Source: a virus (lineage: Duplodnaviria; Caudoviricetes). From it: a stretch of 64,000 nucleotides of DNA. Each line of letters begins with the position of its first letter. Position 1 is the stretch's first letter. Location: the IMG/VR virus record IMGVR_UViG_2899924645_000001, positions 16,355 to 80,354 of that record, one strand, 5' to 3'. Below are positions 11,394 to 28,464 of the stretch, piece after piece. Both the position numbers and the translations under genes were made by a program. Under the pieces are notes generated by a model. It searched no databases, was not told the origin of the DNA, and was given only the letters and a program-made list of their open reading frames with translations.

Positions 11394-12413
11394 CTAGTTG
11401 GCGAGTTCGATGTTTTCCACGAGGGCCGCGCGGCCGTAGTCCTCGACGACATAGGCGTCGTTCGAAGATTCGTAGTTCTCGATCTGGTCGCGCTCGGGCA
11501 CGTCCTTGATGTTTCGGCGGCGTGCATCGCGCTGCCAGTACAGCGACAGGTTGGACAGGGTCGTCACCATCACCTTGCCAGCCGGGAAGAACGGCACGGT
11601 GACGGCCTGCAGGCCGCCTACGCGCTTCTGGCTGATGATGATGTCGGCGGCCAGAGACTCGGTCGGCGGCTGGTCCTTGTTGACCAGTGGAAAGTACTTG
11701 TCGTGCATCAGCCCACGGCCGACGACGGCGACGAGGTCCGGGTCTTCCTGATACCAGGGGTCCAGCAGCGTGATGGCGTCGTAGACGACGGCATCGAGGT
11801 TGGCGTAGTCGCTGGTCGCCTTGTCCGCGCCGACGATGACCTTGCCGGCCTGCTTGCTGCCCTGGGCGAGCACGTTCTCCGGCGCGTGCTCGCGCATGTG
11901 CTGCAGCCAGCCCTTGTTCACGTCCTGCAGCAGCGGGTTCGCGGCGAGATCGGTGGTGGCGGCGATGCTGGTGCCGTTGAAGCCGACGCAGATGCGGTCG
12001 AGCGTCTGGCGCCGGATGATGGCGTCTCGCAGCAGGGTCTGGAAGTTGGGGAAACCGGCCCAGGCGTCGAGCTGCGCATAGCGGATGGCAGTGTCGAAGT
12101 TGGTCTGCACGCAGCGGTACTGGTTGTCGTCGAGCGCTGCGAGGTTGCGCGGCTTGCGCGTACCGTTGCCGCTGGTGTCGGTGCGGCTCGCCACCGGACC
12201 GCTCACACCGACGCCGACCTTGGCGGCAATCTGCTCGGTAACGCCGATGACGTTGATGCGCTGCAGGAACGCACTCGATTCCTGCATCTTCGATTCGAGG
12301 GTCTGCTGTACGCGCGGCTCGACATTGAATTTCTGAACGACGCTCGCGACTCCGTTGAGGGTGGCCAGCTGAGTGAAGTAGGCGTCAATGGCCTGGCGAG
12401 TTTCTTTGCGCAT
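11394..12413 (-). CDS. N: Major capsid protein N (P2 family)
   Basis: KFNVEPRVQQTLE...ESSAFLQRIN...NPLLQDVNKGWLQ...NYESSNDAYVVEDY. Confidence 0.97.
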   Translation of the reverse strand: MRKETRQAIDAYFTQLATLNGVASVVQKFNVEPRVQQTLESKMQESSAFLQRINVIGVTEQIAAKVGVGVSGPVASRTDTSGNGTRKPRNLAALDDNQYRCVQTNFDTAIRYAQLDAWAGFPNFQTLLRDAIIRRQTLDRICVGFNGTSIAATTDLAANPLLQDVNKGWLQHMREHAPENVLAQGSKQAGKVIVGADKATSDYANLDAVVYDAITLLDPWYQEDPDLVAVVGRGLMHDKYFPLVNKDQPPTESLAADIIISQKRVGGLQAVTVPFFPAGKVMVTTLSNLSLYWQRDARRRNIKDVPERDQIENYESSNDAYVVEDYGRAALVENIELAN

Positions 12414-12470
12414 GGTGTGTGCTGCCTGTGTGGTGTTGCGGATGAGGTGCTTGCGGTTGGTCGACTTGGC

Positions 12471-13313
12471 TCAGCAGTCGGTCTTCGTGGTGCCGTTGCC
12501 GCCTGTGGCCAGCGGGCGAGTGGTGCCGGTCGGCGTGGTGTCGAGGACGGAGTACTTGGCCTTCAAGTCGGCTACGGTGGTCTGCAGGTCGCCGATGGTT
12601 TTGTCGCGAGCGGACAGCTTCTGTTCGGTGGCGGTGACGTGGGCCGCGAAGGCGTCGCCGATCTGCTCGAAGCCTTCCGCGATGGCGGCGAAGCGCGCAT
12701 CGTCGGTGGCGGTCTTCGCGCCGAACTTCGCCAGGGCACCCGCGACGGCCGCGCGGAACTTGGCTAGGGCGCCTTCGTCGGGCGCGTCCTCGAATTCGAG
12801 GGTGAACTCTTCGGCGGCGGTGAAGAGGTCGTCGGGCTTGTCCTTGCGCGCGGCGAAGGGGTTGGCGCTTGGGTTCTTGGCAGCGAACTCCAGCATTTCG
12901 GTGCCGAGGCTCGCTGGGTTGTCGGTGACGGCCAGGCCGACGAGATAGGCCTTCTCGCTGTCGGCGAAGCGCGGCCGGACTTCCATCGACGAGTAGATCT
13001 TCTGGCGCTTCTTGTTGAGGTCGATCAGCTCATCGGTGGGGGAGATCTGCGCGAAGAGGGCGAGCTTCTTCACGCCGCCGATCTCGACTTCGCCCGTCTT
13101 TACAGCGGTGACATCGCCATAGGCGCGGAAGTCGCTGTTCGGGCTGTAGCCGCGCATGTGCTCGATGTTGACGCGGGCGCCGTAGACGTTCGGGTCGTAG
13201 CTGGCGGCGATCTGTTCCAGCATCGCACGGTCGATGACGCGGCCGTCGCTGGTCGCGCCTTCGACGGCGACGCGGAAGAACTTGGAGACCGGCTTCTTTG
13301 CGGGTGTGGACAT
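12471..13313 (-). CDS. O: Capsid scaffolding protein O
   Basis: SKFFRVAVEGATSDGR...YLVGLAVTDNPASLGTEML; ends TDC. Confidence 0.95.
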   Translation of the reverse strand: MSTPAKKPVSKFFRVAVEGATSDGRVIDRAMLEQIAASYDPNVYGARVNIEHMRGYSPNSDFRAYGDVTAVKTGEVEIGGVKKLALFAQISPTDELIDLNKKRQKIYSSMEVRPRFADSEKAYLVGLAVTDNPASLGTEMLEFAAKNPSANPFAARKDKPDDLFTAAEEFTLEFEDAPDEGALAKFRAAVAGALAKFGAKTATDDARFAAIAEGFEQIGDAFAAHVTATEQKLSARDKTIGDLQTTVADLKAKYSVLDTTPTGTTRPLATGGNGTTKTDC

Positions 13314-13369
13314 TGGTTGGCTCGCTGCTTGTTGAACGGGGTATCGCGTGGTGTTCGCGATGCGGTGAG

Positions 13370-13432
13370 CCAATGGTGTCGGTGCGTCCGTCCGCTCTCA
13401 AGCCGCCGCGCGTGTGGCTGTGGCGGGCACTG
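13370..13432 (-). promoter_or_regulatory. Putative late promoter upstream of O (divergent O/P region)
   Basis: CCAATG (13370) and GCGGGCACTG (13423), 53 bp apart; matches the V upstream region. Confidence 0.45.
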
Positions 13433-13478
13433 TTGGACGTGGTGGTGATGCTTCGCGCGCGCGGGCAACCTCGGCGGC

Positions 13479-15389
13479 ATGCCCCTGAAATCCGCTGCGT
13501 CCGGCCGCACTCGCCGGACTGTTTCTGTCGCTGCGAAGAAGTCCGCGTCGCACCAGCGTGGACGGGCTTCGAACGTCGCCAAAGCGGCGGCGCCTGCTGC
13601 CGATGTGGCCGGCGTCGCGAGCACTGCGGCGGGCCAGATTGCCACGTTGACGCCGCAGGCGCAACCCCGCACCGCGGCGCGGTTCCTCGCGTGGACGGGC
13701 TGGAAGGTCAAGCAGATCGCGGAGCACCTGGGCGTGCCGGCGTCGACGGTCTACGGCTGGAAGGAGGCCGACAAGTGGGATGACGCGCAGCCGCTCGACC
13801 GAGTGAACGGCGCGCTCGAAGTGCGGCTCATCCAGCTGATTCTGAAGACCGAGAAGACGGGCGGCGACTACAAGGAGATCGACCTGCTGGGCCGGCAGCT
13901 GGAGCGCACGGCCCGCGTCGAGAAGTACCAGCAGACGGGGCGCGAGGGCGACCTGAATCCGAACATCGCGGCACGCAATGCAGCGCCGAAGCGAAAGCCC
14001 AAGCGCAACGAGTTCAGCGAAGACCAGATCGCGCTGCTCGAATCGAAGCTGCGCGAATCGAACTTCCCGTTTCATCAGACGTGGTTCGATCAGCAGTACC
14101 AGCGGCTGCGCGCGATCCTCAAGTCGCGGCAGATCGGCGCGACGTTCTATTTCTCGCGCGAGGCGCTGCTGTCGGCCGCGAAGGAGGGGCGCAACAAGCT
14201 CTTTCTGTCGGCCTCGAAGGCGCAGGCCCACCAGTTCCGAAGCTACATCGTGGATTTCGCGAAAGAGGTCGATGTCGACCTCAAGGGCGAGAACATCAAG
14301 CTTTGGAACGGCGCCGAGCTGATCTTCCTGGGCACGAACGCGATGACGGCCCAGTCGTATCACGGCGACTTCTACTTCGATGAGTTCTTTTGGGTTCCGC
14401 GCTTTCGGACCATCAACAAGCTGGCCAGCGCGATGGCTTCGCACAAGCACTGGCGCAAGACCTACTTCTCGACGCCGTCGGCGATGTCGCACGAGGCCTA
14501 TGGCTTCTGGACCGGCGACGACAGGAACAAGGGCCGCGCGAAGAAAGACCACGTCCGTATTGACACGACGCACAGGACGTTGCGCGGCGGGGCGTTGGGT
14601 CTCGACCGGAAGTGGCGCGACATCGTCACAGTGGAAGACGCTGTGGCGCTGGGCTTCGATCTCTTCGACATCGCCGAGCTGCGCGAGGAATACAGCGTCG
14701 ACGAGTTCGCGAACCTGTTCATGTGCCAGTTCATCGACGACAGCCTTTCGCTGTTCACGCTGGCGCAGATGCAAGCCTGCATGGTCGACAGCTGGGAGAC
14801 GTGGAGCGATGTCAAGCCGTTATGGCTTCGGCCCTATGCGCATCACCCTGTGTGGATCGGCTATGACCCTTCGGATAAGGGCGATGCGGCGGCGTTGGTT
14901 GTCGTGGCGCCGCCGCGGGTGCCCGGCGGCAAGTTCCGCATCCTGCACAGAGAGCAGTTCAAGGGCTCCGACTTCGAGGCCCAGGCCGAGGCGATCCGGC
15001 GCGTCACGCAGCAATACAACGTCGTGCACATCGGCATCGACAAGACGGGCCTTGGCGCCGGCGTTTTCCAGATCGTGGAGAAGTTCTTCCCCCAGGTGAA
15101 GGGCTACCAGTACAGCATCGAGGTGAAGCAACGCCTCGTGCTGAAGGCGCAGCAGGTGATTCACAAGGGCAGGCTCGAGTTCGATGCCGGGTGGACCGAC
15201 ATCGCAGCCTCCTTCATGGCCATCAAACGCGTTCTCACGGCCAGCGGCCGGAATGTGACCTACGACTCGGGCCGCTCGGAAGAGACAGGGCACGCGGATC
15301 TTGCGTGGGCAACGATGCACGCGCTCGACAACGAAACACTCGCCGGCGACGTGGTCGGCGGCAGCTCTCGCATGGAGATTTTTGGATGA
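13479..15389 (+). CDS. P: Terminase large ATPase subunit P
   Basis: N-terminal HTH; ILKSRQIGATFYF; YFDEFFW; FSTPS; GYDP; HADLAWA. Confidence 0.96.
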   Translation: MPLKSAASGRTRRTVSVAAKKSASHQRGRASNVAKAAAPAADVAGVASTAAGQIATLTPQAQPRTAARFLAWTGWKVKQIAEHLGVPASTVYGWKEADKWDDAQPLDRVNGALEVRLIQLILKTEKTGGDYKEIDLLGRQLERTARVEKYQQTGREGDLNPNIAARNAAPKRKPKRNEFSEDQIALLESKLRESNFPFHQTWFDQQYQRLRAILKSRQIGATFYFSREALLSAAKEGRNKLFLSASKAQAHQFRSYIVDFAKEVDVDLKGENIKLWNGAELIFLGTNAMTAQSYHGDFYFDEFFWVPRFRTINKLASAMASHKHWRKTYFSTPSAMSHEAYGFWTGDDRNKGRAKKDHVRIDTTHRTLRGGALGLDRKWRDIVTVEDAVALGFDLFDIAELREEYSVDEFANLFMCQFIDDSLSLFTLAQMQACMVDSWETWSDVKPLWLRPYAHHPVWIGYDPSDKGDAAALVVVAPPRVPGGKFRILHREQFKGSDFEAQAEAIRRVTQQYNVVHIGIDKTGLGAGVFQIVEKFFPQVKGYQYSIEVKQRLVLKAQQVIHKGRLEFDAGWTDIAASFMAIKRVLTASGRNVTYDSGRSEETGHADLAWATMHALDNETLAGDVVGGSSRMEIFG

Positions 15390-16453
15390 GCAAACGCAAG
15401 GGCACGCACGCCCACAGATCGACGCACGCCGCGCCGTTGGCTAATGCTGACGCCGCGGGTGCGAACCTGATGGCACAGCCGGGCGGTGGCGCTGTCGCGG
15501 CCTTCAGTTTCGGCGACCCCGAGCCGGTGAGCCGCATTCAGCTGCTCGACTACGTCGAGAGCATGTTCAACGGCCGCTGGTACGAGCCGCCGCTTCCATG
15601 GGAAGGGCTGGCGAGCGCGTTCCGGGCTTCGCCGCACCATGGCTCTGCGATCTTCCTGAAGCGCAATCTGCTTAAGACGATGTTCATCCCGCACCCACGG
15701 CTGTCGAGCGCGACATTCGGCGCGATGGCGCTGGATTTCTTGGTCTTCGGCAATGCCTACGTCGAGCAGCCGCGCGCCGCAACGGGCCGGCCGCTGGCGC
15801 TGCAGCACGCGCTGGCCAAATTCACGCGGCGCGGGGAAGAGGAGGGCCGCTACTTCTTCGTGCGTGGCTGGCATCAGGAGCACGAGTTCCCCGCTGGCTC
15901 GGTTTTCCATCTGCGTGAAGACGATGTCAATCAGGAGGTCTATGGCCTGCCCGAGTACATCAGCGCGCTGCAGTCGGCCTGGCTCAACGAGTCGGCCACG
16001 ATGTTCCGGCGCAAGTACTACGCGAACGGCTCGCATGCGGGCTTCATCCTGTACCTGTCGGATGCGCAGGTCAGCACCACCGACGCGGACGCGTTGCGCG
16101 AGGCGCTGAAGGGGGCGAAGGGGCCGGGCAATTTCCGGAATCTGTTCCTGCATGCGCCTGGTGGCAAGTCCGATGGCCTGAAGCTGATCCCCGTTAGCGA
16201 GGTGGCTGCGAAGGACGACTTCGCGGCGATCAAGAACGTGAGCAAGGACGACGTGCTCGCCGCCCACCGCGTGCCGCCGGGCCTGCTCGGCATCGTGCCG
16301 ACCAACGCCGGCGGGTTCGGCAATGCGCCGGACGCGCTGGGGGTGTTCATCGACAACGAGATCCGGCCGCTGATGCAGCGCTTTCGCGAGCTCAACGAGT
16401 GGGCAGGGGAGGAACTGGTGCGGTTCCTCGTGCCGGAGCGGAAGGCCGCGTAA
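15386..16453 (+). CDS. Q: Portal protein Q (PBSX family)
   Basis: AFSFGDPEPV...WYEPP...QEVYGLPEY...LNESATMFRRKYYANGSHAGFI...AHRVPP. Confidence 0.96.
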   Translation: MSKRKGTHAHRSTHAAPLANADAAGANLMAQPGGGAVAAFSFGDPEPVSRIQLLDYVESMFNGRWYEPPLPWEGLASAFRASPHHGSAIFLKRNLLKTMFIPHPRLSSATFGAMALDFLVFGNAYVEQPRAATGRPLALQHALAKFTRRGEEEGRYFFVRGWHQEHEFPAGSVFHLREDDVNQEVYGLPEYISALQSAWLNESATMFRRKYYANGSHAGFILYLSDAQVSTTDADALREALKGAKGPGNFRNLFLHAPGGKSDGLKLIPVSEVAAKDDFAAIKNVSKDDVLAAHRVPPGLLGIVPTNAGGFGNAPDALGVFIDNEIRPLMQRFRELNEWAGEELVRFLVPERKAA

Positions 16454-16561: not shown

Positions 16562-18004
16562 CTACTTGGCGAGCGCGAAGAACTGCGGCCGGTTGGCTCC
16601 GGCCGCGTGCACGGTTTGCAGAGCGAGCGCGCCGGTGCTCCGGTCGATCGTAAAGACCGAGATCGTGTTGTCGCCCTGGTTCGCCGTATAGGCGAACCGG
16701 CCTGTGCGATCCACGGTGACGGAGTTGGGCGTGTTGGCGCCGACGGAGAACGGCTGGCCCGGTACGGCCGTCAGCGCGCCGGTTCGTGGGTTGATGGCGT
16801 AGGCCGAGACGTTGTGGGAATTCCTGTTCGCAACGTACACGAAGCGACCGGTCGGATCGATGGCCATGCCAAAGGGCGTGTTACCGGAGGGCACCGAGCC
16901 GATCGAAGTCAACGCGCCTGTGGTTTGGTCAATGGAATAAGCGCGCAGGGTGCCGGGGTTGTTGCCAGTGCTCACGTAGGCGAAACGGCCGCTGGGTTCA
17001 GCCGCGACGTCGACGATGCCGCTGACTGGCAGCGCAACCGACGCGGGTGGCGAGATCGGAACGCCGGTGCCCTGATCCAAGCGGAACACCTCGATGGACG
17101 CGCCGTTGGGCACGAACGCGAATCGCCCCTCGGGATCGAAACCTAACTTGCGACTGTTGCCGCCGGCCACGGCCACGGCCGTGCTGCCGTCGAGGTCGCC
17201 GGTGGTGGCGTCGATATTGAGCCGATGGATCTGCCCATCGCCGATCACGTAGGCAAAACGTCCCTTGGGTTCGACGCCGACAAAAACCGGGCTCGTGCCG
17301 ACGCCGGTGGTCAGATTGAGGTTCTGCGACAGCGTGCCGGCGGGGTCGATGGTGGATTGAGTGACGCCTTCGGTCCCGACGTAGACGCTGGTGTAGAGCT
17401 TTTTCCCCGAGGGATGCGCGGTCACGTGCTGGGGCGTGCCTGCCAAGGGGTACGCAGTGGCTGCTGACAAGCTGCCATCCGGAGAAACGGTGTATGCAGT
17501 CAGACTGTTCGATCCCTCATTGGCCGCAAAGCCGAAACGGTCGGCTCCGGCCTCCGAGCAATTGACCGTCACCGAGCTCACCGCCGCCCCCGCAACCGTT
17601 CCGAAGGCCTGTTTCGCAACACAGACCTGCAGCGCCGTGGGCTGCGTCTTCACGGTCACGCCGTACTCGGCACCGTCGTCCAGCGAAGAAGCGAAGCTGA
17701 AGCTCCCGTCGGCGGCTACGGCCAGGTCGTCACCTGCGTTGTTCTGCAGCACCAGCCCGCTGCCTGCCAGGCCGGTGACGGTGCCGCCGACAGTGAACTT
17801 CAGCGCGCCCGCTGGCGGCGCAGGGGGAGGCGGCGGCGGCGGTGGCGGGGGTGGCGGCGGCGCGTCGCCTACGCCGCTGTTGGCCGGAGGAAAGGGACCA
17901 AAGGAGAAGCCTCCGCCTCCACCGCCGCCGCACGATGTAAGCATCAAGGGCACGGCGATGGCCAGGGCGAGGCTCAGGCGGGTGCGACAGGGCAGTGGCG
18001 GCAT
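16562..18004 (-). CDS. Lipoprotein with Ig-like domain and lactonase-family beta-propeller (moron)
   Basis: Lipobox LMLTS|C, Gly and Pro runs, FTVGGTVTGL..GLVLQNN Ig-like repeat, repeated DP.GRFAYV blades; start MPPLPCRT at 18004. Confidence 0.82.
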   Translation of the reverse strand: MPPLPCRTRLSLALAIAVPLMLTSCGGGGGGGFSFGPFPPANSGVGDAPPPPPPPPPPPPPAPPAGALKFTVGGTVTGLAGSGLVLQNNAGDDLAVAADGSFSFASSLDDGAEYGVTVKTQPTALQVCVAKQAFGTVAGAAVSSVTVNCSEAGADRFGFAANEGSNSLTAYTVSPDGSLSAATAYPLAGTPQHVTAHPSGKKLYTSVYVGTEGVTQSTIDPAGTLSQNLNLTTGVGTSPVFVGVEPKGRFAYVIGDGQIHRLNIDATTGDLDGSTAVAVAGGNSRKLGFDPEGRFAFVPNGASIEVFRLDQGTGVPISPPASVALPVSGIVDVAAEPSGRFAYVSTGNNPGTLRAYSIDQTTGALTSIGSVPSGNTPFGMAIDPTGRFVYVANRNSHNVSAYAINPRTGALTAVPGQPFSVGANTPNSVTVDRTGRFAYTANQGDNTISVFTIDRSTGALALQTVHAAGANRPQFFALAK

Positions 18005-18316
18005 TTCTTTTACTTTAGGAAACAAATGTGGCGGCGATGTTATCGGGACGCGCTGCCATTTGCACGCCCCGCGGCTGGCCGCCACTTCGTGCCAGATGCT
18101 GTCGAATTCAGCCACTTCGTCCAGCGTCGCACCGCCGTGGTGGTTTGGATGACGCAGATTCGCGCAGATGGCCTCCAAACACGACTTGTTCGCTCAAAGG
18201 TCCCCTTGCCCTTGCCTTGGGCCGCTCGGCCTCTCCATGGGGCTGCCACGGGCCTCGTAGCGATCCCGCCGCCTCCACGACCGTCCCCCCGACGCGGGCC
18301 GCCCGTCCCCGCCGAC

Positions 18317-18370
18317 GCGCGGTCTAGCCCCCACCGAGCCCGCGGGCTTCGGGTAGTTGTTTTTACGACC
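18317..18370. other. P2-type cos region; candidate 19-nt cohesive end at 18322-18340
   Basis: GCGCGGTCTAGCCCCCACCGAGCCCGCGGGCTTCGGGTAGTTGTTTTTACG resembles the Q-distal cos motif of P2-like phages; reverse complement GGCTCGGTGGGGGCTAGAC shares 11/19 positions with P2 GGCGAGGCGGGGAAAGCAC (from memory). Confidence 0.6.
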
Positions 18371-18437
18371 CGGTCGGTGAGGTTTTAGGGGGGGCGGGTG
18401 TTGGAGCCGCGGTTGCTGTGCGAGGAGCGCCCCATGT

Positions 18438-18457
18438 ACCCGTTATTACGGGTTTTT
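18438..18457 (+). terminator. Possible intrinsic terminator
   Basis: ACCCGT-TATT-ACGGGT followed by a T run. Confidence 0.4.
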
Positions 18458-18688
18458 CTCTCGTTATGCGTCGCGAGCCGGAGCTGTCGCAGCTGCGGGC
18501 TGTCTTGGGTAGACCAACACGTACGGCTACAGCTGGCCTTAGCCGTCGTTCACTGGCGAGAAGCGACCGACCGCGATTGTTGCGGTCTCGTCCCGAAGCC
18601 GCCGGATGACTGCCGTCATCGAAAGCTGACGTAGCTAACGCTCGGCGTTCGAGTACGCGGCGCGTCGTGGGCGTGCGGAAGCGTTGAT

Positions 18689-19633
18689 TTGAGTCAAATA
18701 TGTTACAAATGTGTTATATATGTAGGGGGCCACGCGGTCTCCGGGAAACGCAGAGGAGAACAAGCGGTGCATCCCTTTAGCCTAGGACAGGAGTACGAGC
18801 GAGCTGCCTTGCTCTCCTTCGTCGGCAGCCGCCAAGCCCAGCCAGGGGTGATCTGGGGAAGTAGGGAGCCAGGCTGCGTCATCTGTACTTCAGGAGGCCG
18901 GCACGGCAAGCAGGCCGGGTACGTGGACGGGCAGCAGCCTGATGGTTCGTGGGTCTACGTGGGCCAGGGCACTAGCGGGGACCAGCGACTTGAGAACTCG
19001 GCGAACGCGAAGCTCGCATCGTTCGATCGATCTGTGTTGCTATTCACCACGCGCGAGCCCAACTCCAGGGAGATTGCGCTGCGCGGGTACGGCAAGCACT
19101 ACGTCTTCCGAGGTGCATTCAATGTCGCTGGCTTCGAGTTCTTCTCCCCCGACTCGGGATCGAGGAAGGGCGACCGCCTGCTGCGATTCTTCTTAATGCC
19201 GGCAGACGACAGCTACATTGAAAGCCAAGCGTTCGAGCCGAGCGTCACCGCTGAGCACGAGTTGTCACTCCGTGCCATGCAATTGAAGCTTCGCGAATTA
19301 GCAAGTCCAGCCAAGCAGAAGAGGCTGACGACGATCGAGTACCGAGCGCGCAGTGCGGCAGTGCATCGATACGCGTTGGCCAGGGCGAAGGGTAGTTGTG
19401 AGTGCTGCGGCTTGGGCGCACCCTTTGAAAGCGATCAGGGCATTCCATACCTGGAGGTGCATCATCTCTTGAGGTTGGCAGACGATGGTCCTGATGCGCC
19501 AAGCAACGTAGCTGCCGTTTGCCCGAACTGCCATCGTGCCCTGCATCATTCCAAGGGACGAGCTGCTCTCGCGGCGTCGTTGCGTTTGCGGGTTGCGAAG
19601 TTCGAAGATGAAATCGTCCATGCGCCTGGGTAA
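18689..19633 (+). CDS. SRA/PUA-like domain + McrA-type HNH endonuclease (putative type IV modification-dependent REase); start may be GTG near 18766
   Basis: N-terminal GY.DG.QPDGSWVYVGQG..GDQ....N; C-terminal CECCG..APF....G.PYLEVHH...LADDGPD.PSN.AAVCPNCHRALH. Confidence 0.8.
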   Translation: MSQICYKCVIYVGGHAVSGKRRGEQAVHPFSLGQEYERAALLSFVGSRQAQPGVIWGSREPGCVICTSGGRHGKQAGYVDGQQPDGSWVYVGQGTSGDQRLENSANAKLASFDRSVLLFTTREPNSREIALRGYGKHYVFRGAFNVAGFEFFSPDSGSRKGDRLLRFFLMPADDSYIESQAFEPSVTAEHELSLRAMQLKLRELASPAKQKRLTTIEYRARSAAVHRYALARAKGSCECCGLGAPFESDQGIPYLEVHHLLRLADDGPDAPSNVAAVCPNCHRALHHSKGRAALAASLRLRVAKFEDEIVHAPG

Positions 19634-19745
19634 GCGCGGCCCTTCAACGAGCCTGGGCTTGGGCGTTCGATCCCTCTTGAGCAGGCCAGCGCCAACGACG
19701 TACCGTCACCGACAATCCTGTCCGTCCAACTAGAACACGCACTCG

Positions 19746-22115
19746 ATGACATCGAAAGAACTCCACTTCGACGTAAGCACGGGCTTGAAGCGCGTCATCG
19801 GACGCGACTTAATCACGAACGACGAAGTCGCCATCTTCGAGCTCGTCAAGAACTCTTTCGATGCTAACGCGCGGAACGTGCAACTGTACTTCTCGTCGCA
19901 AGGCCTGATCATCGTCGACGATGGCAAGGGCATGACGTATGACGACCTGACCAAGAAATGGCTGTTCGTCGCGTATTCGTCCAAGAGCGGCGGGGCTGGC
20001 GCATCGGCCGCGCCCGGCCAGTTCCGAGAGCTGATCGCTGAGCGCAGGCACTACGCTGGCAGCAAGGGCATTGGGCGGTTCTCGTCTGACAGGCTCGGCA
20101 GCACGCTGCTGATGCAGACGCGTTCATCGGCGGAGAACGGGCCGGTCCACGAGGTCTTTGTCGACTGGGGCTTGTTCGAGGCCAACCTGCGAGAACAGTT
20201 CGGGAATATTCCAGTGCGCTACACGGAGCGCGAGGCATTCACTTTGCCCCCAGAGGTAGACGTTCCCGATCACGGCACGGCGATCTTCATTAAGGTCAAC
20301 CCCGAGGATCGATTGCCCTGGGACCGGCATCGAATATTGCAGCTTAAGGCGTCGCTCGCGAAGCTCATCAATCCGTTCGGTAGCGGTGTCGATGGATTCC
20401 AGATCAACATCATTGCGCCGGAGGAGGAGGAGGCCGACAAGGCGGAGGCCCAGTCTCCTCGGAGGACGGAGGAGCTCAGCCCGAACGACGTCGTCAATGG
20501 CCACGTCGGTAACTTCATCTTCTCGACCCTACGGGACAAGACGACCTTCATCGAGGTGTGGTTGTCCGACGACGGCGGTTTCATCAACAGCGCGCTGACC
20601 GATCGGGGCGAACTGGTGTATCGGATTCGGGAGCCGAATCCTTACGAGTGGCTCCAGCAATCCGGATTCAGGTGCGAGCTCTACTACCTAAACCAGTCGG
20701 CGAAGACGACATTCGCCCGTCGGATGGGCGTGTCGTCCGTCAAGTTCGGGTCGGCCTTCCTCTTCCGCAACGGGTTCCGGGTCTATCCGATAGGCGAGGA
20801 GGGCGATGATTCGTTCGGGATCGACCGACGGAAGCAGCAGGGCTACGCACGCTTCCTTGGAACCCGGGACATCATCGGGCGCCTGGACGTCTCCGGGCCA
20901 GAAGATCTGTTCAAGGAGGCCTCCAGCCGGAACCAGGGCTTGATCGACTCGGCTGCCGTTGACGAGTTGAAGGCATGCTTCTGGGAATATTGCCTCAAGC
21001 GGCTCGAGCGCTACGTCGTGCCAGTCACGTGGGCTGATCGAGCGGAAAAGGACACGGAGGATCTTTCTCGCTTGCTGACAGACTCGGGCAAGGCTCGCGT
21101 TGCTAGCGCCTTCGCGAAACTTATCGACGACGCCGATGTCGAGGTGCTGGAGTACAGCAAGAAGCTAATCGGCATCTTGAACGAGCGATCGAGCCAGTTC
21201 GAGGAGTCGATGGTCAGCCTCCGCGCCATCGCGCTCAAGAGCAGCGATGTGGCGATGCTTGAAAGCCTCGACCGGGCCGAGACGCGTTTCGCGGAACTCC
21301 GGCGGGCGGAATCCGAAGCTGTCAAGATCGCAGGCGAGGAGCGACGTGCGCGCGAGGCTGCTGAACGCATCGCGGAGCAAGCAAGGCAAGACGTCAATCG
21401 TCTCGAGGTCGATCTCGGCGAGGAGCAGAAGCGCACGCGCTTCCTCATGTCGATCAAGTCCCTCGACCACGACACGATCCTGAACCTGCACCACCAGATC
21501 ACCATCTACGCCGCCGACGCCAAGCAGCAGATCGAGAATTGCATCGCCGCGGCGAAAGTCAACGGACTCTCTCCCGAAGAGACCGTGGCCCGGCTGGAGA
21601 ATATCGCCTTCCTGAACCACAAGGTGCTATCGATCTCGAGGTTGGCGACCAAAGCGAACTTCAGGCTGGAGTCCGACTATATCGAGGGAGATCTGGCGGC
21701 CTACGTCGACGACTACCTTACCCAAGGAGCGGCACCGTTCCTCGGCTCGGGCATTGAGCTCAAGGTGGGCCGGCACGATGCGGTTCTAGTCAAAAGGTTT
21801 CGGCCGATCGAGGTCTCGATCGTGATCGACAACCTTATCAGCAACGCCGAGCGAGCTCGCGCGACCGAGGTCGTCTTTGATCTCTCGAATCCGGACAAGA
21901 AGACGTTGCTTATGACGGTCACGGACAACGGTCGGGGCATCTCCCATTCGATCGCGGACGTGGAGCAGATCTTCGAGCTCGGGTTCTCCAGGACTTCCGG
22001 CTCGGGGATCGGGATGTACCACGTCCGGCAGGTACTTGGGGAGATGGGCGGGAGCATCTCGGTGGATACCGCCGTCCGACGCGGTGCCAAGTTCGACGTT
22101 AAGGTGACCGCATGA
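19746..22115 (+). CDS. Prokaryotic MORC-type GHKL ATPase fused to a C-terminal histidine kinase module
   Basis: N-terminal ELVKNSFDA, DDGKGM, GSKGIGRFS; coiled coil; H-box-like LHHQI; DNLISNA, DNGRGI, IFELGFS, GSGIGM; no TM segment. Confidence 0.88.
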   Translation: MTSKELHFDVSTGLKRVIGRDLITNDEVAIFELVKNSFDANARNVQLYFSSQGLIIVDDGKGMTYDDLTKKWLFVAYSSKSGGAGASAAPGQFRELIAERRHYAGSKGIGRFSSDRLGSTLLMQTRSSAENGPVHEVFVDWGLFEANLREQFGNIPVRYTEREAFTLPPEVDVPDHGTAIFIKVNPEDRLPWDRHRILQLKASLAKLINPFGSGVDGFQINIIAPEEEEADKAEAQSPRRTEELSPNDVVNGHVGNFIFSTLRDKTTFIEVWLSDDGGFINSALTDRGELVYRIREPNPYEWLQQSGFRCELYYLNQSAKTTFARRMGVSSVKFGSAFLFRNGFRVYPIGEEGDDSFGIDRRKQQGYARFLGTRDIIGRLDVSGPEDLFKEASSRNQGLIDSAAVDELKACFWEYCLKRLERYVVPVTWADRAEKDTEDLSRLLTDSGKARVASAFAKLIDDADVEVLEYSKKLIGILNERSSQFEESMVSLRAIALKSSDVAMLESLDRAETRFAELRRAESEAVKIAGEERRAREAAERIAEQARQDVNRLEVDLGEEQKRTRFLMSIKSLDHDTILNLHHQITIYAADAKQQIENCIAAAKVNGLSPEETVARLENIAFLNHKVLSISRLATKANFRLESDYIEGDLAAYVDDYLTQGAAPFLGSGIELKVGRHDAVLVKRFRPIEVSIVIDNLISNAERARATEVVFDLSNPDKKTLLMTVTDNGRGISHSIADVEQIFELGFSRTSGSGIGMYHVRQVLGEMGGSISVDTAVRRGAKFDVKVTA

Positions 22116-23038
22116 GGCTCGACTTCACGATTCTGTGGATCGATGACCAGCCGCAACATATCCGGAGCTTCGAAGAAGGACTGAGAAATGCTTTGGACGC
22201 CCTGGGTTTCAAGCTAACCGTCATCCCCGTCGCTGGCTTGGACGCCGTCGATGCGACGGTGTCAGAGCATGTCCACGACGACGCAATTGATCTGGTGTTG
22301 GTGGACTACGACTTGAACGGGAAGGGCACCGGGGGCGAGGAGGCCCTCCTTCAGGTGCGAAAGAAGCTGCCCTTCAAAGACGTGATCTTTTACTCGGGCA
22401 CCGACGTGAAGAAGCTCCGGGAGATCGCGTACAACGCCGGCGTCGACGGCATCTATTTCTCGTCGAGGCCGGGGCTTGTCGGCAACGCGACGAAGGCGAT
22501 CCAGAAGCTCCTAAGCAAGGTCATGGACCTCGACCACATGCGAGGCGTGGTTATGTCAGCCTCAAGCGACATCGACTTCGTTGTGGAGCGCAGCCTGCTC
22601 AAAATGCATGATGCGCTGGATGAAGCGGAAAGGGCGGCCCTGCATGCCGAGATCGTCGCCGAGCTGCGAGAGAAGCTCAAGAAATGGAGCGACGAGCTGG
22701 AAAAGGTAGGCTCGAAGGGGGACTTCGCCAGCCTGATGAAGAAGAAGCACATCTTCACCGCTTCGGACAGACTAGGCAGCCTCTTGAAGCGGCTCGCATC
22801 CTGGGAAGCGGAGCACGACGGAACGCGTTCTAAGGTTGACAACTACATCAATGGCGTCGTTCAACGGCGTAACAAGCTCGCGCACGCGATGCTACGGCGC
22901 CAAGACGGCAAGCTGCGGATGGTCGGCATGGAGCAAAACTGGACGGCCGAGGAAATGACCGCCCTGCGGCGAGAGCTGATCGACCACCGCGACAACTTTA
23001 TGCTCATCGCGGTATTGCTGGACGTCAGCCTGGACTAG
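22112..23038 (+). CDS. Receiver (REC) domain protein with C-terminal helical HEPN-like domain
   Basis: ILWIDD, LVLVDYDL (phosphoacceptor Asp), FYSG; C-terminal RNKLAH = R-x4-H motif at 22868-22885; ATGA overlap with the kinase gene. Confidence 0.8.
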   Translation: MRLDFTILWIDDQPQHIRSFEEGLRNALDALGFKLTVIPVAGLDAVDATVSEHVHDDAIDLVLVDYDLNGKGTGGEEALLQVRKKLPFKDVIFYSGTDVKKLREIAYNAGVDGIYFSSRPGLVGNATKAIQKLLSKVMDLDHMRGVVMSASSDIDFVVERSLLKMHDALDEAERAALHAEIVAELREKLKKWSDELEKVGSKGDFASLMKKKHIFTASDRLGSLLKRLASWEAEHDGTRSKVDNYINGVVQRRNKLAHAMLRRQDGKLRMVGMEQNWTAEEMTALRRELIDHRDNFMLIAVLLDVSLD

Positions 23039-24320
23039 GCACCGAAGTCGCCAGCCACACGGCTACAGACTTCCCGATCGCTTCCGCCATCAGCGGGGGA
23101 ACCGCGTTCGCGACCTGCGTGAAACGAGGAACCTCCTGTTTTCGAAGCTGGCCACCCGTCGTGTACTTGCCCCGGAATTGGAACCAGTCTGGAAAGCTCT
23201 GCAGCCGCGCATTTTCTCGTACCGTCAGGGTGCGAGGCTCGCGGTAGTGCAGCAGGTCGTCCGGCATGCTCGTGATAGTGGGCGACGGACGATCGGGATC
23301 GAGCACCCGTAGCGCCATTTTCTTGAGGCCGAATGATTCCCGGAGTTCGCGACTGATCGACACGTTCAGTCGGCCATCCTTGTGCGATATGTCGATGATC
23401 TGTTCGAAGCGTTTGACGATCTCGGGCCTGTGGCGCGCCAGCCTGGAGCTATCAGGCGTCGTCTCGCTTCCTGCTCGCATGAGCTTCTGGAAATTCGTCC
23501 TCGCGGGCCCGTAGGCGATCGCGCTGAACCCCTTGCTGTCGGGGCAGTCGATGACGCTGCCGCGCGCGAGCTCGAGATCCGATATGGCAGCGGAAGCGCT
23601 TGTGGTCGTTAGGAGCCCCTTGGATTGCAGGAATTGGTTACGGCTGCCAGTCAAGGCCTCGAAGGGATCTTGAGATTCCTTGAGCTCCTTCCGCAGGCCC
23701 AGCAGAAAGAAACGCACCCTGGCCTGGGGTACGCCGTAGTCCGACACCTTGATCATCTTCCAGCGCACGCGGTAGTCCTTCGACAGCTCGCGCACCAACT
23801 TCTCGGCGTAGTTGATGCGGCCGTCGTTGCTGGATTCGTCCACGAAGTCCACGGTGATCCCGTTGACATTCTCGATCAGGACCGCTCGTGGGCGAACCTT
23901 CCGCACGAGCTTCAGGTAGCTGTCCATCAGGGCATTGCGCGGATCTGCGGCATTGCGACGTCCAGCGCTGGAGAATCCCTGACACGGCGGGCCGCCGGCC
24001 ATCAAGTCGACTTTACCGGACAGCGACGCCAGCTTCCCCGAATGCTTGGCAAGCAGTTCCATGGCGCAGATCGGCTGTTGCGGTAGCCATGCCGGCCATT
24101 GGTAGCAATGCTCGCCCTCGCGCGCCAACAGGTTCGTCTTCAGGGTTTCAAAGGCAAATTTATCCTTCTCAACCGCGAAGAGGCCATTCCAGCCAGCTTG
24201 CATCAGGCCAAGGCTAAGGCCGCCGCAGCCGGCGAAGACGTCGATGAACGTCAGGCGCTTCGTCTGGGCAGTGCTTGCCTCCTCGCCGCCGTCCTGGGGG
24301 GGACTTTTGACTTGTAGCAT
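23025..24320 (-). CDS. DNA (cytosine-5) methyltransferase, convergent with the HK/REC operon
   Basis: Motif I DVFAGCGG, IV GGPPCQGFS, VI ENV, VIII PQARVR, IX RENARLQSFPD, X VANAVPP. Confidence 0.95.
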   Translation of the reverse strand: MLQVKSPPQDGGEEASTAQTKRLTFIDVFAGCGGLSLGLMQAGWNGLFAVEKDKFAFETLKTNLLAREGEHCYQWPAWLPQQPICAMELLAKHSGKLASLSGKVDLMAGGPPCQGFSSAGRRNAADPRNALMDSYLKLVRKVRPRAVLIENVNGITVDFVDESSNDGRINYAEKLVRELSKDYRVRWKMIKVSDYGVPQARVRFFLLGLRKELKESQDPFEALTGSRNQFLQSKGLLTTTSASAAISDLELARGSVIDCPDSKGFSAIAYGPARTNFQKLMRAGSETTPDSSRLARHRPEIVKRFEQIIDISHKDGRLNVSISRELRESFGLKKMALRVLDPDRPSPTITSMPDDLLHYREPRTLTVRENARLQSFPDWFQFRGKYTTGGQLRKQEVPRFTQVANAVPPLMAEAIGKSVAVWLATSVPSPG

Positions 24321-24893
24321 ACCGGTCTAGTTGATACTGAGGGTCGAAGTATCGCGGAACCGCGCTGATTGCACCAGGTGCAATTGCCTGAAGATGCGCG
24401 TTGCGGTCTCGACTACGCTGCATGCTGTGGGACTAAGCTCGCCAAGCGAAGCTTCGGTCCATCGACCAGGGTTGGGGTACCAGACGTGCAGACGTCTGCA
24501 CATCCTCGCCGTGGTGAAGGTGATGGGCGACCGAGGCAGGCGATCGGCGGCTGGTCAAAGTTCTCCTGCATCGCTGCCCTTCCGGTGTTTAGAAGCGCTC
24601 GACGGGAGTTGTCGGATAACCAAACCATTAATCTCATACGTCCTCTCCGCCGAGAGGTCTCCTAAGCGTGAGCTGACCTTTGTGGCGTCGACTTGAACTA
24701 CCGCTGTCGCTGACCTGCCGAAATTGGGCCGACAAAACGCACCGCCGGACGGCGAACCGATCAGGAGCTGTCGGTGGGGGTGTGCGAGGCAAGGACATCA
24801 ACCGCTGCCAAGCACATGTGCGCAGCGGTCCCGACCCGTTGCCTTCGAGTTCTAAGCCGATCGGTCCTGGACCTCAAGTAGGTAGTCAAATTT

Positions 24894-25104: not shown

Positions 25105-25144
25105 CATGGCATCAGTCATGGTATTTTCCTGCGGATACCATGAC
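25105..25144. repeat. Arm-type integrase sites overlapping the int start
   Basis: CATGGCA/CATGGTA direct pair (25105, 25117; 12-bp period) and perfect inverted GTCATGGTAT-N10-ATACCATGAC. Confidence 0.55.
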
Positions 25145-26303
25145 ACTCACCGTTAAAGCTGTTGACGCGGCCAAGCCGCGCGAGAAGGCGTACAAGTTGG
25201 CGGATGCCCACGGCCTCTACCTCTACGTTTCGCCCAAGGGCGCAAAGAGCTGGCGGGCCAACTACACGGAAGCCGGAAAGCAGAAGACGCGGACGTACGG
25301 CCTCTACCCTGGGGTGAGCCTGGCCGAGGCGCGAAAGGCCCATTCAGCGGGGCGAGAAGAGGCTCCAGCGCCAAAGCTGGCGCCGACATTCGAGGCGGTA
25401 GTGCGCGACTGGCTGAAGGCGAAGCTGCCGACGCTTTCCAACGGCAAGCATCAGATTCAGGTGGCGAACACCTTGGAGCGCTACGCGCTGCCGTTTCTCG
25501 GCAAGCTGCCTATCAACGCGATTCCGAGGTCAGAGCTGGTGAAGGTGGTGCGTGCTGCCCAAGCGGGCGGAAAGATCGAAACCGGACATCGCGTCGCGAG
25601 CCGGATTTCGGCGGTTTTCGATTTCGCCCAAGACACCGGGCTGATAGAGCAGCATGGCGCAGCCGGCCTCACGCGCGTGCTCATCGCGCGCAAGACAAAG
25701 AAGCCGATGGCAAGCATCCCTCCGGAAGAGGCCGGAGTGCTGATGCGCGCCATAGATGGATATGACGACTCAGTAACCCGGCTCGGGCTGCTGCTGCTCG
25801 CGCACACCTTCGTCCGGGTTGGTGAGTTGAGGGGGATGCTATGGGGGGAACTGAAGGAAGGCGGCGCGGTGTGGGTCGTTCCCGAGACCCGAATGAAGAT
25901 GCGCATGCCGCACGTCGTGCCTCTCTCGCGACAGGCTCAGTCAATCCTTGCAAAGCTGCGCGAGATGAGCGGCGACGGTGCGCTTGTGCTCGATTCGCCC
26001 ATTCATCCGGGGCACCCGCTGTCGGAGAACACCTTTCTGTTTGCCCTGTATCGGCTTGGCTACCGTGGGCGGATGACGGCCCACGGGTTCCGCGCCTTGG
26101 CTTCGACAGTGCTCAACGAGCGGTCGGGGTTTCCGCATGACGTGATCGAGCGGCAGCTCGCGCACAAGGAGACAGACGCTGTTCGCGCGGCGTACAACCG
26201 CGCTGAATACCTTACGCAGCGCCGTGAGCTGATGCAGTGGTGGTCGGATTGGCTGGAGGCGGCTCAACGAAGCGACGAAGGTCCGAGACCCGCCAGCGCG
26301 TGA
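25140..26303 (+). CDS. int: Tyrosine integrase, P4-like with arm-binding domain
   Basis: KLADAHGLYLYVSPKGAKSW; FVRVGELR; HGFRALAST; IERQLAH; AAYNRAEY. Confidence 0.96.
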   Translation: MTLTVKAVDAAKPREKAYKLADAHGLYLYVSPKGAKSWRANYTEAGKQKTRTYGLYPGVSLAEARKAHSAGREEAPAPKLAPTFEAVVRDWLKAKLPTLSNGKHQIQVANTLERYALPFLGKLPINAIPRSELVKVVRAAQAGGKIETGHRVASRISAVFDFAQDTGLIEQHGAAGLTRVLIARKTKKPMASIPPEEAGVLMRAIDGYDDSVTRLGLLLLAHTFVRVGELRGMLWGELKEGGAVWVVPETRMKMRMPHVVPLSRQAQSILAKLREMSGDGALVLDSPIHPGHPLSENTFLFALYRLGYRGRMTAHGFRALASTVLNERSGFPHDVIERQLAHKETDAVRAAYNRAEYLTQRRELMQWWSDWLEAAQRSDEGPRPASA

Positions 26304-26448: not shown

Positions 26449-26894
26449 TGGCTGATTCCTTCCTCTGCCGCGGCCTGGCGGCGAATGCGCGCGAGCGATT
26501 CGATGAATGCATCGAACATCTGCCTTGGCGAGCTGTTGCGGGTTATTTCTTCGCAGACCTGGAGGCCGGCGGCCATCGCTTGCAGGCCGGGTCCGTCGAA
26601 GCCATAGCGGCCGTGTCGGCCGTGAATTGCGTCGCAGCGGCGAAGCGCGTCTGCTGCGGCGCGGAGGGGCGCGAGGCAAAGCTCGTCTATCTGCTCGGCG
26701 CGCACCATGACCGTATTCAGGTGCGTGCTGAGCCTGTCGAAAAGCTCGTCGTCGGTGCTGCCCGTCTTCAGGTCTGCGAAGGCGCTGTAGACCTTGGTCA
26801 TGATGTCGTCACCGGCCGGGATGTTGTGCACCTGACGTGCGGCGACAGCGACAGCGACCATCGCGGGGCGGACGCGGCGGCTGTTGCGCTTCAT
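26445..26894 (-). CDS. Conserved hypothetical phage early protein
   Basis: Coupled by 4-bp overlaps to neighbours; helical protein ...LRRCDAIHGRHGRYGFDGPG. Confidence 0.7.
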   Translation of the reverse strand: MKRNSRRVRPAMVAVAVAARQVHNIPAGDDIMTKVYSAFADLKTGSTDDELFDRLSTHLNTVMVRAEQIDELCLAPLRAAADALRRCDAIHGRHGRYGFDGPGLQAMAAGLQVCEEITRNSSPRQMFDAFIESLARIRRQAAAEEGISQ

Positions 26895-27808: not shown

Positions 27809-28464
27809 CGCTTGGCCCCCAGTCCCGCGAGAGTTCGAGCCACCTGCAGCTCGGCGAAGCGCGTGAGAAAGCGCTCGCGCCAGTCCTTCCACGTCGCGGC
27901 CTCGCGCTCGGGCGTGTCGAGGCGAACCCAGTCGGCGGGCGCGACCGGCTGCAGCGTGTTGTCGTTGAGCGCGGGCCACGGCATGTGGCGCGAGGGGTTG
28001 TAGGGCGTCAGGTCGCGGCGAGCCGTGGCGAGCGCCTGCAGGTCGATGGAGCGCAGAAACTCGCGATGCCCGGCGAACACCGACAGAAGCTTGAAGTGCT
28101 CGCGCACGCCCTTGGCATGCTCGGCTTCGAAGGCGTGCCATGCGCCGACGCCGAAGGCCATGCTGTAGCTGTTGACGGCTTGCTTAGCGGGACTGATGAG
28201 GTCGTTGGTGTATGCCTCGTGCGCGTCGTGCAGCAACGCTGCCATCTGCACGAACACCGATGCGCCGGCGCGCTGGGCGATGTCGCAGCACAGGAGGCTG
28301 TGCTCGGCCACGCTGTAGGGGCGCGACGTGGCGCCGTTGAACTGGGCGACGATGGCGAGGTGGTGCGCCACGTCGTTGATGTCCACGGGGCGGCCGCATG
28401 CGCCGTAGGCGGTGGGGCCGGCGAGGTGGTACTCGGCGCCGCTTGCGGTCAGCATCCACGTCAT
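27805..28464 (-). CDS. HD-domain phosphohydrolase (YfdR/5'-deoxynucleotidase-like)
   Basis: DVAHHLA...QFNGAT..PYSVAEHS...ALLHDAHEAY.ND...P.K. Confidence 0.88.
   Translation of the reverse strand: MTWMLTASGAEYHLAGPTAYGACGRPVDINDVAHHLAIVAQFNGATSRPYSVAEHSLLCCDIAQRAGASVFVQMAALLHDAHEAYTNDLISPAKQAVNSYSMAFGVGAWHAFEAEHAKGVREHFKLLSVFAGHREFLRSIDLQALATARRDLTPYNPSRHMPWPALNDNTLQPVAPADWVRLDTPEREAATWKDWRERFLTRFAELQVARTLAGLGAKR

Follow-up and report, generated by a model that had tools for sequence, protein, structure and literature searches.

Organization of the locus

The DNA analyzed here, referred to as the window, is a stretch of 64,000 nucleotides (positions 16,355 to 80,354) of IMGVR_UViG_2899924645_000001, an 80-kb provirus record of IMG/VR. 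The subject of this work is a candidate anti-phage locus between window positions 18,689 and 24,320, where four open reading frames (ORFs) encode an SRA-HNH endonuclease, a sensor histidine kinase, a response regulator with a HEPN-like C-terminal domain, and a C5 cytosine DNA methyltransferase (Table 1). The initial annotation, made from the sequence alone, had described these four ORFs, the motifs LHHQI, VDYD and RNKLAH, a convergent overlap of 14 bp, and a location between a P2-like portal gene and an integrase, and all of these were recovered in our analysis. The overlap is tail to tail, since the receiver gene ends at position 23038 and the stop codon of the methylase begins at 23025. The translation of ORF 1 probably starts at the GTG codon and not at the TTG codon, because its homologues have about 288 aa.

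The cargo slot starts past the portal gene, and the integrase is either its far edge or the start of a neighbouring element. The G+C content is 0.58–0.61 over positions 19–25 kb, against 0.65–0.70 in the flanks. The nearest phages are P2-like ones that infect Burkholderia, Ralstonia and Stenotrophomonas. A second, divergent P2-like provirus of IMG/VR carries the kinase–receiver pair in the same slot (identities of 53% for the portal, 61% for the kinase and 52% for the receiver), in agreement with the earlier placement of the locus in a prophage cargo slot.

Table 1. Positions of the genes, protein regions and neighbouring features described in the text (nucleotide positions refer to the window).
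Feature	Position	Strand	Basis
ORF 1, SRA-HNH	18689-19633 as mechanical ORF (TTG 18689); likely 18767..19633	+	GTG 18767
ORF 2, sensor histidine kinase, 789 aa	19746-22115	+	Pfam
Kinase, paraMORC/MutL-type GHKL ATPase	residues ~17-135
Kinase, conserved middle domain	residues ~200-460
Kinase, coiled coil	after the middle domain
Kinase, DHp helix with H582/H583	nt 21489-21494
Kinase, HATPase_c catalytic domain	residues 690-787
ORF 3, REC/HEPN-like response regulator, 308 aa	22112-23038	+	Pfam, AlphaFold2
Receiver protein, receiver domain	residues 1-137
Receiver protein, phosphate acceptor D65	nt 22304-22306
Receiver protein, HEPN-like helical domain	residues 140-302
Receiver protein, RNKLAH motif	nt 22868-22885
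ORF 4, C5 cytosine DNA methyltransferase	23025-24320	-	Pfam, PADLOC
Mobile three-gene cassette	19744..24381		blastn nucleotide homology block
P2-like head/packaging genes: capsid N, scaffold O, terminase P, portal Q	11394..16453		Pfam, PHROGs
Tyrosine integrase	25140..26303	+	Pfam Phage_integrase, Arm-DNA-bind_3, Phage_int_M; PHROG 1

A conserved cassette of three genes

About 60 loci from more than 10 phyla were inspected, of which 50 came from species genomes and were found with an alignment-based profile of the receiver protein (a scan of the genome contigs with the single protein gave no match), and ten came from contig look-ups and a scan of IMG/VR. The 50 genome loci belong to Pseudomonadota, Acidobacteriota, Verrucomicrobiota, Chlorobiota, Fibrobacterota, Ignavibacteriales, Deinococcales, Eremiobacterota and others. 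A kinase (49–66% identical) lies directly upstream of the receiver gene in 49 of the 50 species genomes, and a C5 methylase is likewise present in 49. Methylase orthologues, 52–60% identical, directly follow the receiver gene in most of the 50 loci, mostly in convergent orientation. Among the ten further loci, seven have the trio in its usual order and none has a recurrent extra gene; the remaining three comprise one with the kinase, the receiver and a divergently placed longer C5 methylase, one in which no C5 methylase was matched, and one that ends at the edge of a provirus.

When all flanking ORFs were clustered, Vsr alone recurred, in 13 loci. Of the 133 closest flanking ORFs, a Pfam tally assigned nine to Vsr and a few to transposases, resolvases and Abi genes, the others being unrelated housekeeping genes, and neither survey of the flanks revealed a recurrent DNase or a conserved fourth gene beyond Vsr. 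At the nucleotide level, the cassette of the window forms a single block of 4.64 kb that is 83–84% identical to three other loci (L051–L053) in blastn, running from the start codon of the kinase to about 60 bp past the start of the methylase. The pairwise-identity matrices of the kinase, receiver and methylase from 40 complete cassettes presented Spearman correlations of 0.77–0.83; relatedness inflates such correlations, and they are read only as an indication that the three genes travel together. Judged from these comparisons, the conserved unit is a set of three strictly linked and co-diverging genes, encoding a predicted paraMORC-GHKL/histidine kinase, a REC/HEPN-like protein and a C5 methylase.

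The cassette is rare and patchy. Besides the seed genome, it was present in one of 400 sampled gammaproteobacterial species, against three of 400 for Response_reg_2, and only one further provirus of IMG/VR carries the receiver protein. In several inspected loci the context is a mobile element or a defence island.

The methylase of the window matches DNA_methylase (PF00145, E 2.4e-51) in Pfam and MTase_II (E 8e-82) in PADLOC, and has its catalytic Cys113 in the motif GGPPCQ. Across the 40 cassettes, its variable region (residues 221–340) is almost as conserved as the catalytic core, which suggests that the methylases of these cassettes share one conserved target sequence. A terminator-like hairpin for the methylase transcript occurs at window positions 22941–22964 (minus strand), inside the 3′ end of the receiver gene; given this location, convergent transcription might couple the expression of the two genes.

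Some variation was observed in and around the cassettes. In locus L065 (4584–7376, a Herbaspirillum genome) and locus L088 (1–2202, a P2-like provirus), genes for PAAR and Tox-REase-5 proteins and a downstream gene lie directly upstream of the kinase, with a DUF4123 protein called in L088 and a weak match of the downstream gene to Imm52 in L065; this group looks like a type VI secretion effector with its immunity gene. Locus L065 also has a stand-alone gene for a 131-aa receiver at 2034–2429. The receiver gene is in two pieces more than 1 kb apart in L044 and L049, whose cassettes look disrupted, and one gammaproteobacterial copy (G335:C8:62034-62567) has an in-frame TAA stop. Some relatives carry a helix-turn-helix gene upstream of the cassette.

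The kinase

In the kinase, Pfam detected HATPase_c_3 (E 4.4e-22, residues 27–131) and HATPase_c (E 8.7e-20, residues 690–787), and the same scan revealed neither a membrane domain nor a classical sensor domain. Among NCBIfam models, the N-terminal head matches the BbrUII/HgiDII restriction enzyme family best (NF050001, E 8e-17) and MutL next. The initial description of a kinase with no membrane or classical sensor domain and with a MORC/MutL-type GHKL ATPase as its putative input holds.

Residues invariant among 19 diverse members include E32, N36, D39, D58xGxG and G105SKGxG in the head, the pair H582 and H583, and N696, N700, D727xGxG and G752SGxG in the catalytic domain. The Bergerat motifs of both ATP sites and the DHp histidine pair, which belongs to the LHHQI motif, are therefore intact, and the protein has the H-box (H582/H583), N (N696/N700), G1 (D727xGxG) and G2 (G752SGxG) elements of a two-component kinase. 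The middle region is conserved to the same degree as the ATP sites, and a search of the ESM Atlas with it returned only unnamed clusters or its own family.

The receiver protein and its HEPN-like domain

ORF 3 presented a weak match to Response_reg and a match below threshold to HEPN_Apea (E 0.0086) in Pfam. An AlphaFold2 model, built from an alignment of 31 sequences, had a predicted local distance difference test (pLDDT) score of 86.8 (models about 87–89). Residues 1–137 were modelled as a receiver fold, which matches solved receiver structures, and D12, D65 (in the VDYD motif) and S95 are invariant, in keeping with the acidic pocket, acceptor Asp and beta-4 Ser/Thr of a classical two-component receiver. 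The position in strand beta-5 is occupied by R119 (nt 22466–22468), an arginine invariant across the family; response regulators normally carry an invariant lysine there. No DNA-binding domain, and in particular no winged helix-turn-helix (wHTH), was found in the protein, as had been noticed at first together with the RNKLAH motif.

In the model, the C-terminal domain consists of two helices, a short helical insert, a helix (residues 233–257) ending in the motif R253-N-K-L-A-H258, a beta-hairpin and a last helix. A survey of HEPN domains (PMC3710099) places the Rx4-6H motif at the end of helix 3, describes insertions separating helices 2 and 3 as typical, and notes that Csx1 has a hairpin past the motif, and both the position of RNxxxH and the topology of the model agree with that description. 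Across 45 divergent members, about 25% identical to that of the window, the invariant residues are D65, G75, R83, R144, G145, R253, N254, H258 and R286.

Pfam families were tallied in a set of domain sequences (n=33) and in the divergent set (n=45). HEPN_RiboL-PSP was matched by 3 of the 33 and 3 of the 45 members (best E 2.6e-4) and HEPN_LA2681 by 2 of the 33. HEPN families are the commonest matches in the domain set, and in the divergent set HEPN_RiboL-PSP is the sole non-REC family with more than two matching members. An hhalign comparison with a RiboL-PSP alignment built from genomes gave a probability of 42% (E 2.6e-4) in 42 columns over the motif helix. Structure searches with the predicted C-terminal domain gave no significant match to any solved HEPN, and its ESM Atlas search, like that of the kinase middle domain, found only unnamed clusters or the family itself. 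An exhaustive profile search collected 771 representatives of 50%-identity clusters, nearly all of about 305 aa with the domain behind a receiver of about 120 aa, and the HEPN-like domain is hardly ever seen without a receiver. We consider it probable that the C-terminal domain is a HEPN domain, because helix 3 of a confident model ends in an invariant RNxxxH motif, the topology is that of HEPN, and profile matches, although below threshold, point to the same families.

The SRA-HNH gene

ORF 1 matches HNH in Pfam (E 4e-9) and mREase_IV, a type IV methyl-directed model, in PADLOC (E 4.9e-20). Compared with PDB sequences, the family profile retrieved E. coli McrA (E 2.3e-26), ScoMcrA (4.9e-17), TagI (3.9e-4, over positions 51–260 and both domains) and the SRA domain of SUVH5 (0.0084), and the N-terminus also aligns to a stretch of the ScoMcrA SRA domain. 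C211, C214, C252, C255, H232, H233, N247 and H256 are invariant in the family, in agreement with a Cys4 HNH nuclease. The SRA (YDG) assignment made earlier for the N-terminus has therefore gained support at the profile level, and because of these matches a TagI/ScoMcrA/McrA-type SRA-HNH type IV (modification-dependent) restriction endonuclease is a fair name for the predicted product.

This gene does not share the history of the cassette. Its nucleotide sequence is 83% identical to that of a stand-alone gene in Pseudorhodoferax (L055/L056), where no cassette lies nearby, and of the 206 family members retrieved most come from contigs without a cassette. The cassettes nearest to that of the window, with receivers 91–94% identical, have no HNH gene, and the nucleotide homology to them stops at the start codon of the kinase; for this reason the SRA-HNH gene is best regarded as a separately acquired, mobile module outside the conserved unit. 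The combination of an HNH gene with the kinase–receiver pair occurs in 4 of about 60 loci overall and in about 4 of 14 in the sub-clade of the window, which is defined by receivers at least 50% identical and includes all four HNH-bearing loci. The initial annotation had set rare co-occurrence beforehand as evidence against a single four-gene system, and co-occurrence is indeed rare; what stands of that system is the strictly linked kinase, REC/HEPN-like protein and C5 methylase with their catalytic residues intact, and the inclusion of the HNH gene is not sustained. Nevertheless, with three further loci, the association is not negligible.

Among these three loci, L054 has the order HNH–kinase–receiver, as in the window, and in L001 and L003 the HNH gene follows the receiver gene, its start overlapping the receiver stop codon. 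The canonical convergent methylase is absent from all three, and no C5 methylase of any kind was detected in L054.

The surroundings of these loci are varied. In L054 (6491–8608), the receiver gene is followed by a gap of 610 bp, a Vsr gene, and a homologue of DptH of Dnd restriction (PDB 7es4, E 2.3e-52). Loci L001 (9924–17842), L003 and L085 (1–4477), from Pusillimonas, Allopusillimonas and Pseudomonas sp. LF19, have a longer divergent C5 methylase of 486–514 aa, about 46% identical in the two loci measured, and then genes for proteins of about 710 aa and 515–520 aa, the former with weak AAA matches in L001. An AbiEi/AbiEii pair lies between the kinase–receiver–HNH operon and the longer methylase of L001.

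Two more genes were observed next to the locus in the window. The slot also holds, between the portal and HNH genes (16562–18178, minus strand), a gene for a 538-aa seven-bladed beta-propeller lactonase (Pfam Lactonase, E 7.7e-35). Just past the integrase, at 26891–28141 (minus strand), is a second C5 DNA methylase gene (Pfam, E 3.1e-44; PHROG 116), which probably belongs to a neighbouring integrated element. The stretch thus holds two C5 methylases and one SRA-HNH enzyme.

Proposed mechanism and alternative explanations

We somewhat favor the interpretation that the locus contains a self-contained, 4.6-kb cassette resembling a restriction–modification (R-M) system, which signals instead of cutting DNA, beside an independent SRA-HNH module. 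The C5 methylase would mark the host DNA at a fixed motif. The MORC/MutL-type GHKL head and the middle domain of the kinase, probably an ATP-driven DNA clamp, would detect DNA that is unmarked or otherwise foreign, and upon detection the kinase would phosphorylate itself at H582/H583 and pass the phosphate on to D65 of the receiver. Phosphorylated receivers would then pair, so that two HEPN-like domains could form an active RNase with R253, N254 and H258, which would cut RNA and arrest the infected cell until decay of the phospho-aspartate resets the switch. Independently, the SRA-HNH enzyme would cut cytosine-modified foreign DNA and cover phages that escape the first module by DNA modification. 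Together with this mechanism, and held with the same slight preference, goes the view that a P2-like prophage carries two adjoining defence modules in its cos-proximal cargo slot.

For the signalling cassette, our data show its gene content, strict linkage, co-divergence, intact catalytic residues, lack of a DNase, kinase homology to Ambrosia (a validated system compared below) and mobile-element context. Two precedents also speak for it, since phage defence by Ambrosia needs the N-terminal GHKL Asn of the kinase and the Asp of the receiver, and a His-Asp relay gates a toxic effector in Detocs. By inference we add the target of the sensor, the sense in which the logic runs, an active RNase and an abortive end to infection.

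Several observations weigh against it. The phosphorylation chemistry may be atypical, with R119 in place of the beta-5 lysine, and every Pfam match to HEPN falls below the curated cut-offs. Enrichment in defence islands is not established, because many of the flanking genes are housekeeping genes, and the receiver protein is absent from 50,697 phage records and 72,556 plasmids. The authors of Ambrosia favor transcriptional control or induction, and not a gated toxin, for their system (bioRxiv 10.1101/2025.09.30.679545), and the branch described here rests on computation.

The alternative that survives best, although we think it unlikely, is that the four genes are one Ambrosia-like system, in which the kinase–receiver pair senses infection and unleashes the methylase together with a methylation-dependent SRA-HNH effector that cuts freshly marked DNA. 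Ambrosia requires each of its methylase, kinase, REC and type IV HNH components, its methylation does not protect the phage, and its kinase is a homologue of that of the window, where the HNH gene is co-oriented with the kinase gene and 113 bp upstream of it with no terminator-like site between them. The three other HNH-bearing loci, in two gene orders and all deprived of the canonical convergent methylase, are also in its favor. On the other hand, about 56 of 60 cassettes have no HNH gene, including the closest relatives, the nucleotide homology indicates that the two modules were acquired separately, and most members of the HNH family stand alone. In addition, the receiver cannot regulate transcription in the way proposed for AbrC, because it has no wHTH, and the Ambrosia counterparts are a PtuB-like HNH protein without SRA (AbrD) and an N6 methylase (AbrA). 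The recurrent HNH association and the Ambrosia precedent are what keep this explanation alive.

A second alternative, quite improbable in our view, concerns the receiver protein itself, whose C-terminal domain would be not a nuclease but a helical regulatory or partner-binding module, for example one controlling the methylase or an unlinked effector, with RNxxxH as a binding motif or a product of convergence. The lack of a significant structural match to any HEPN, the Pfam matches below threshold and the modest hhalign probability are in its favor. However, R253, N254, H258, R144 and R286 do not vary across members only about 25% identical, which is more in keeping with an active site than with an interface. 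Apart from REC, HEPN alone among Pfam families was matched by more than two divergent members, HEPN families are the commonest in the domain set, and the neighbourhood of the cassette holds no other conserved effector.

Least probable of the three is that the trio is mainly a selfish addiction module acting by post-segregational killing, in which loss of the cassette or inhibition of the methylase would leave DNA unmarked and a putatively long-lived kinase–receiver pair would kill or arrest the cell, with defence as a secondary role, as for PrrC guarding EcoprrI: strict methylase linkage, convergent and overlapping transcription, compact cassettes beside housekeeping genes as well as in mobile elements, and the established theme of HEPN RNases guarding R-M enzymes (PMC3710099) are in its favor, but Ambrosia, the validated relative, protects from phage and is not toxic to its host, and the cassette is in the prophage cargo slot of two divergent P2-like proviruses.

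Returning to the signalling cassette beside an independent nuclease, a more specific form of it is possible, and we propose it only tentatively. In this form, the cassette would be an R-M system without DNA cleavage, whose MORC-type clamp reads 5-methylcytosine as the mark of self; unmarked DNA would trigger the His-Asp relay and the HEPN RNase, the decay of phospho-aspartate would be the timer, and the SRA-HNH enzyme would have been recruited as a second arm in the window and in a few relatives. If this is true, DNA would be checked both ways, unmethylated DNA leading to the RNase and foreign-methylated DNA to the nuclease, and there would be a prokaryotic precedent for MORC proteins that read the methylation state of DNA. 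The mechanism proposed for the cassette would, if it holds, join restriction–modification, two-component signalling and the HEPN toxins of abortive infection, and would offer a tractable bacterial model for methylation sensing by MORC-type ATPases, an open question for the eukaryotic MORCs. The family is large, with its 771 cluster representatives and more than 10 phyla, and a cassette as compact as 4.6 kb can be easily cloned and tested.

Comparison with known systems

Associations of MORCs and paraMORCs with cytosine methylases, Vsr and sometimes HNH genes were described by Iyer, Abhiman and Aravind in 2008 (PMC2292703), with neither a kinase fusion nor a receiver. The initial annotation had attributed to comparative genomics of MORC ATPases both the R-M-like neighbourhoods and the kinase fusions with receivers. 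The first part agrees with that work; the kinase–receiver pairs come from the computational study of Bellieny-Rabelo, Pretorius and Moleleki in 2021 (PMC8011034), in which kinase-like proteins composed of HATPase_c_3, HEF_HK and HATPase_c are paired with Response_reg_2 proteins near C5 methylases, Vsr and paraMORC ATPases. The BbrUII/HgiDII and paraMORC R-M systems likewise have an N-terminal MutL/MORC-type GHKL head, which works beside cytosine methylases and Vsr, but their ATPase is joined to a DNA nuclease or helicase by fusion or has one as its partner, where the window has a histidine-kinase transmitter. The defensive role of paraMORCs was still called 'proposed' in a 2026 preprint, and DefensePredictor lists an unvalidated HATPase+REC system.

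The kinase of the window has the architecture of the HEF_HK/Response_reg_2 kinases, that is, HATPase_c_3, DHp and HATPase_c beside a C5 methylase and often Vsr. A genuine locus of this kind was verified in L062, where the kinase has 993 aa and its partner 555 aa, and hhalign of the window kinase with a HEF_HK protein gave a probability of 97.6% (E 4e-12) over residues 16–417, which cover the GHKL and middle domains. On the other hand, those kinases have about 990 aa, their partners have about 555–625 aa with an unassigned C-terminal region, and PMC8011034 makes no mention of HEPN. No relation between the window receiver and Response_reg_2 proteins was detected by hhalign, a comparison of low sensitivity with single-sequence templates. 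The filing of the pair under HEF_HK (PF19191) and Response_reg_2 (PF19192) was rejected, as neither model gave a match at E<=10 in the record of the window; PF19192 matched none of the 45 divergent receivers, and one Aeromonas member reached 18.9 bits against a cut-off of 27. The cassette is thus best described as a sister family of the HEF_HK/Response_reg_2 pairs, since the GHKL and middle domains of the kinases appear homologous, yet the Pfam models do not match and the partners are not detectably related.

A comparable layout is found in Detocs (DtcA-DtcB-DtcC; Rousset et al., bioRxiv 10.1101/2023.01.24.525353), a validated system in which a His-Asp relay gates a toxic effector in phage defence and the effector domains are swappable. 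In both, the receiver that the kinase phosphorylates, or would phosphorylate, is fused to a toxic or putatively toxic effector and not to a DNA-binding domain. Detocs differs in its TPR sensor, its stand-alone 'buffer' receiver DtcB, its PNP ATP-nucleosidase effector and its lack of a methylase; the Detocs models of PADLOC matched none of the proteins of the window, and the cassette has no stand-alone receiver. The HNH core and the SRA-like N-terminal domain of ORF 1 are shared with TagI, ScoMcrA and E. coli McrA, but the sulfur-binding domain of ScoMcrA is absent. MADS, which is related to BREX and OLD, and WonAB, composed of an OLD-ABC ATPase and a PD-(D/E)xK nuclease, were considered and rejected as relatives.

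The closest validated system is Ambrosia (van den Berg et al., bioRxiv 10.1101/2025.09.30.679545), which has five genes: AbrR is an XRE regulator, AbrA an N6 methylase, AbrB a HATPase kinase, AbrC a REC protein and AbrD an HNH protein of type IV. It guards P. aeruginosa PAO1 against two phage groups, every gene is required, and defence is lost with the substitutions N40A in the N-terminal GHKL domain of the kinase and D60A in the receiver; methylation by AbrA gives phages no protection, and the system defends without toxicity to the host (bioRxiv 10.1101/2025.09.30.679545). Ambrosia shares with the window a methylase, a soluble kinase with HATPase_c_3 at its N-terminus and HATPase_c at its C-terminus, a REC protein and an HNH protein of type IV. 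The 75-aa N-terminal fragment of AbrB given in Table S1 of that paper is 42% identical to the window kinase (E 5e-14), and the hallmark motif of the AbrB middle domain matches it weakly (E 0.015), so the two kinases are taken as homologous on sequence grounds. The statement of the initial annotation that no system with this architecture had been experimentally characterised no longer holds, because Ambrosia, with its homologous kinase, has been validated.

The differences are also considerable. AbrA is an N6-adenine methylase and that of the window is a C5 methylase (PF00145). AbrC has 209 aa and a proposed wHTH, whereas the window receiver has 308 aa and a HEPN-like domain of about 170 aa, and hhalign detected no similarity between the AbrC N-terminus and the profile of the window receiver family, again with a single-sequence template and low sensitivity. 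AbrD is PtuB-like and lacks SRA, in contrast to the McrA-type HNH enzyme with SRA of the window, and the HNH gene, obligatory in Ambrosia, is missing from most cassettes of this family. The XRE regulator AbrR is also absent at the window locus, where the small upstream ORFs (18026–18634) match no Pfam family. We propose that the cassette represents a new branch of the phosphorelay-wired class of anti-phage systems, of which Ambrosia, validated in 2025, is the first member. To this class the window adds a cassette that occupies the cargo slot of P2-like prophages and can pair with an SRA-HNH gene, echoing the validated Ambrosia design.

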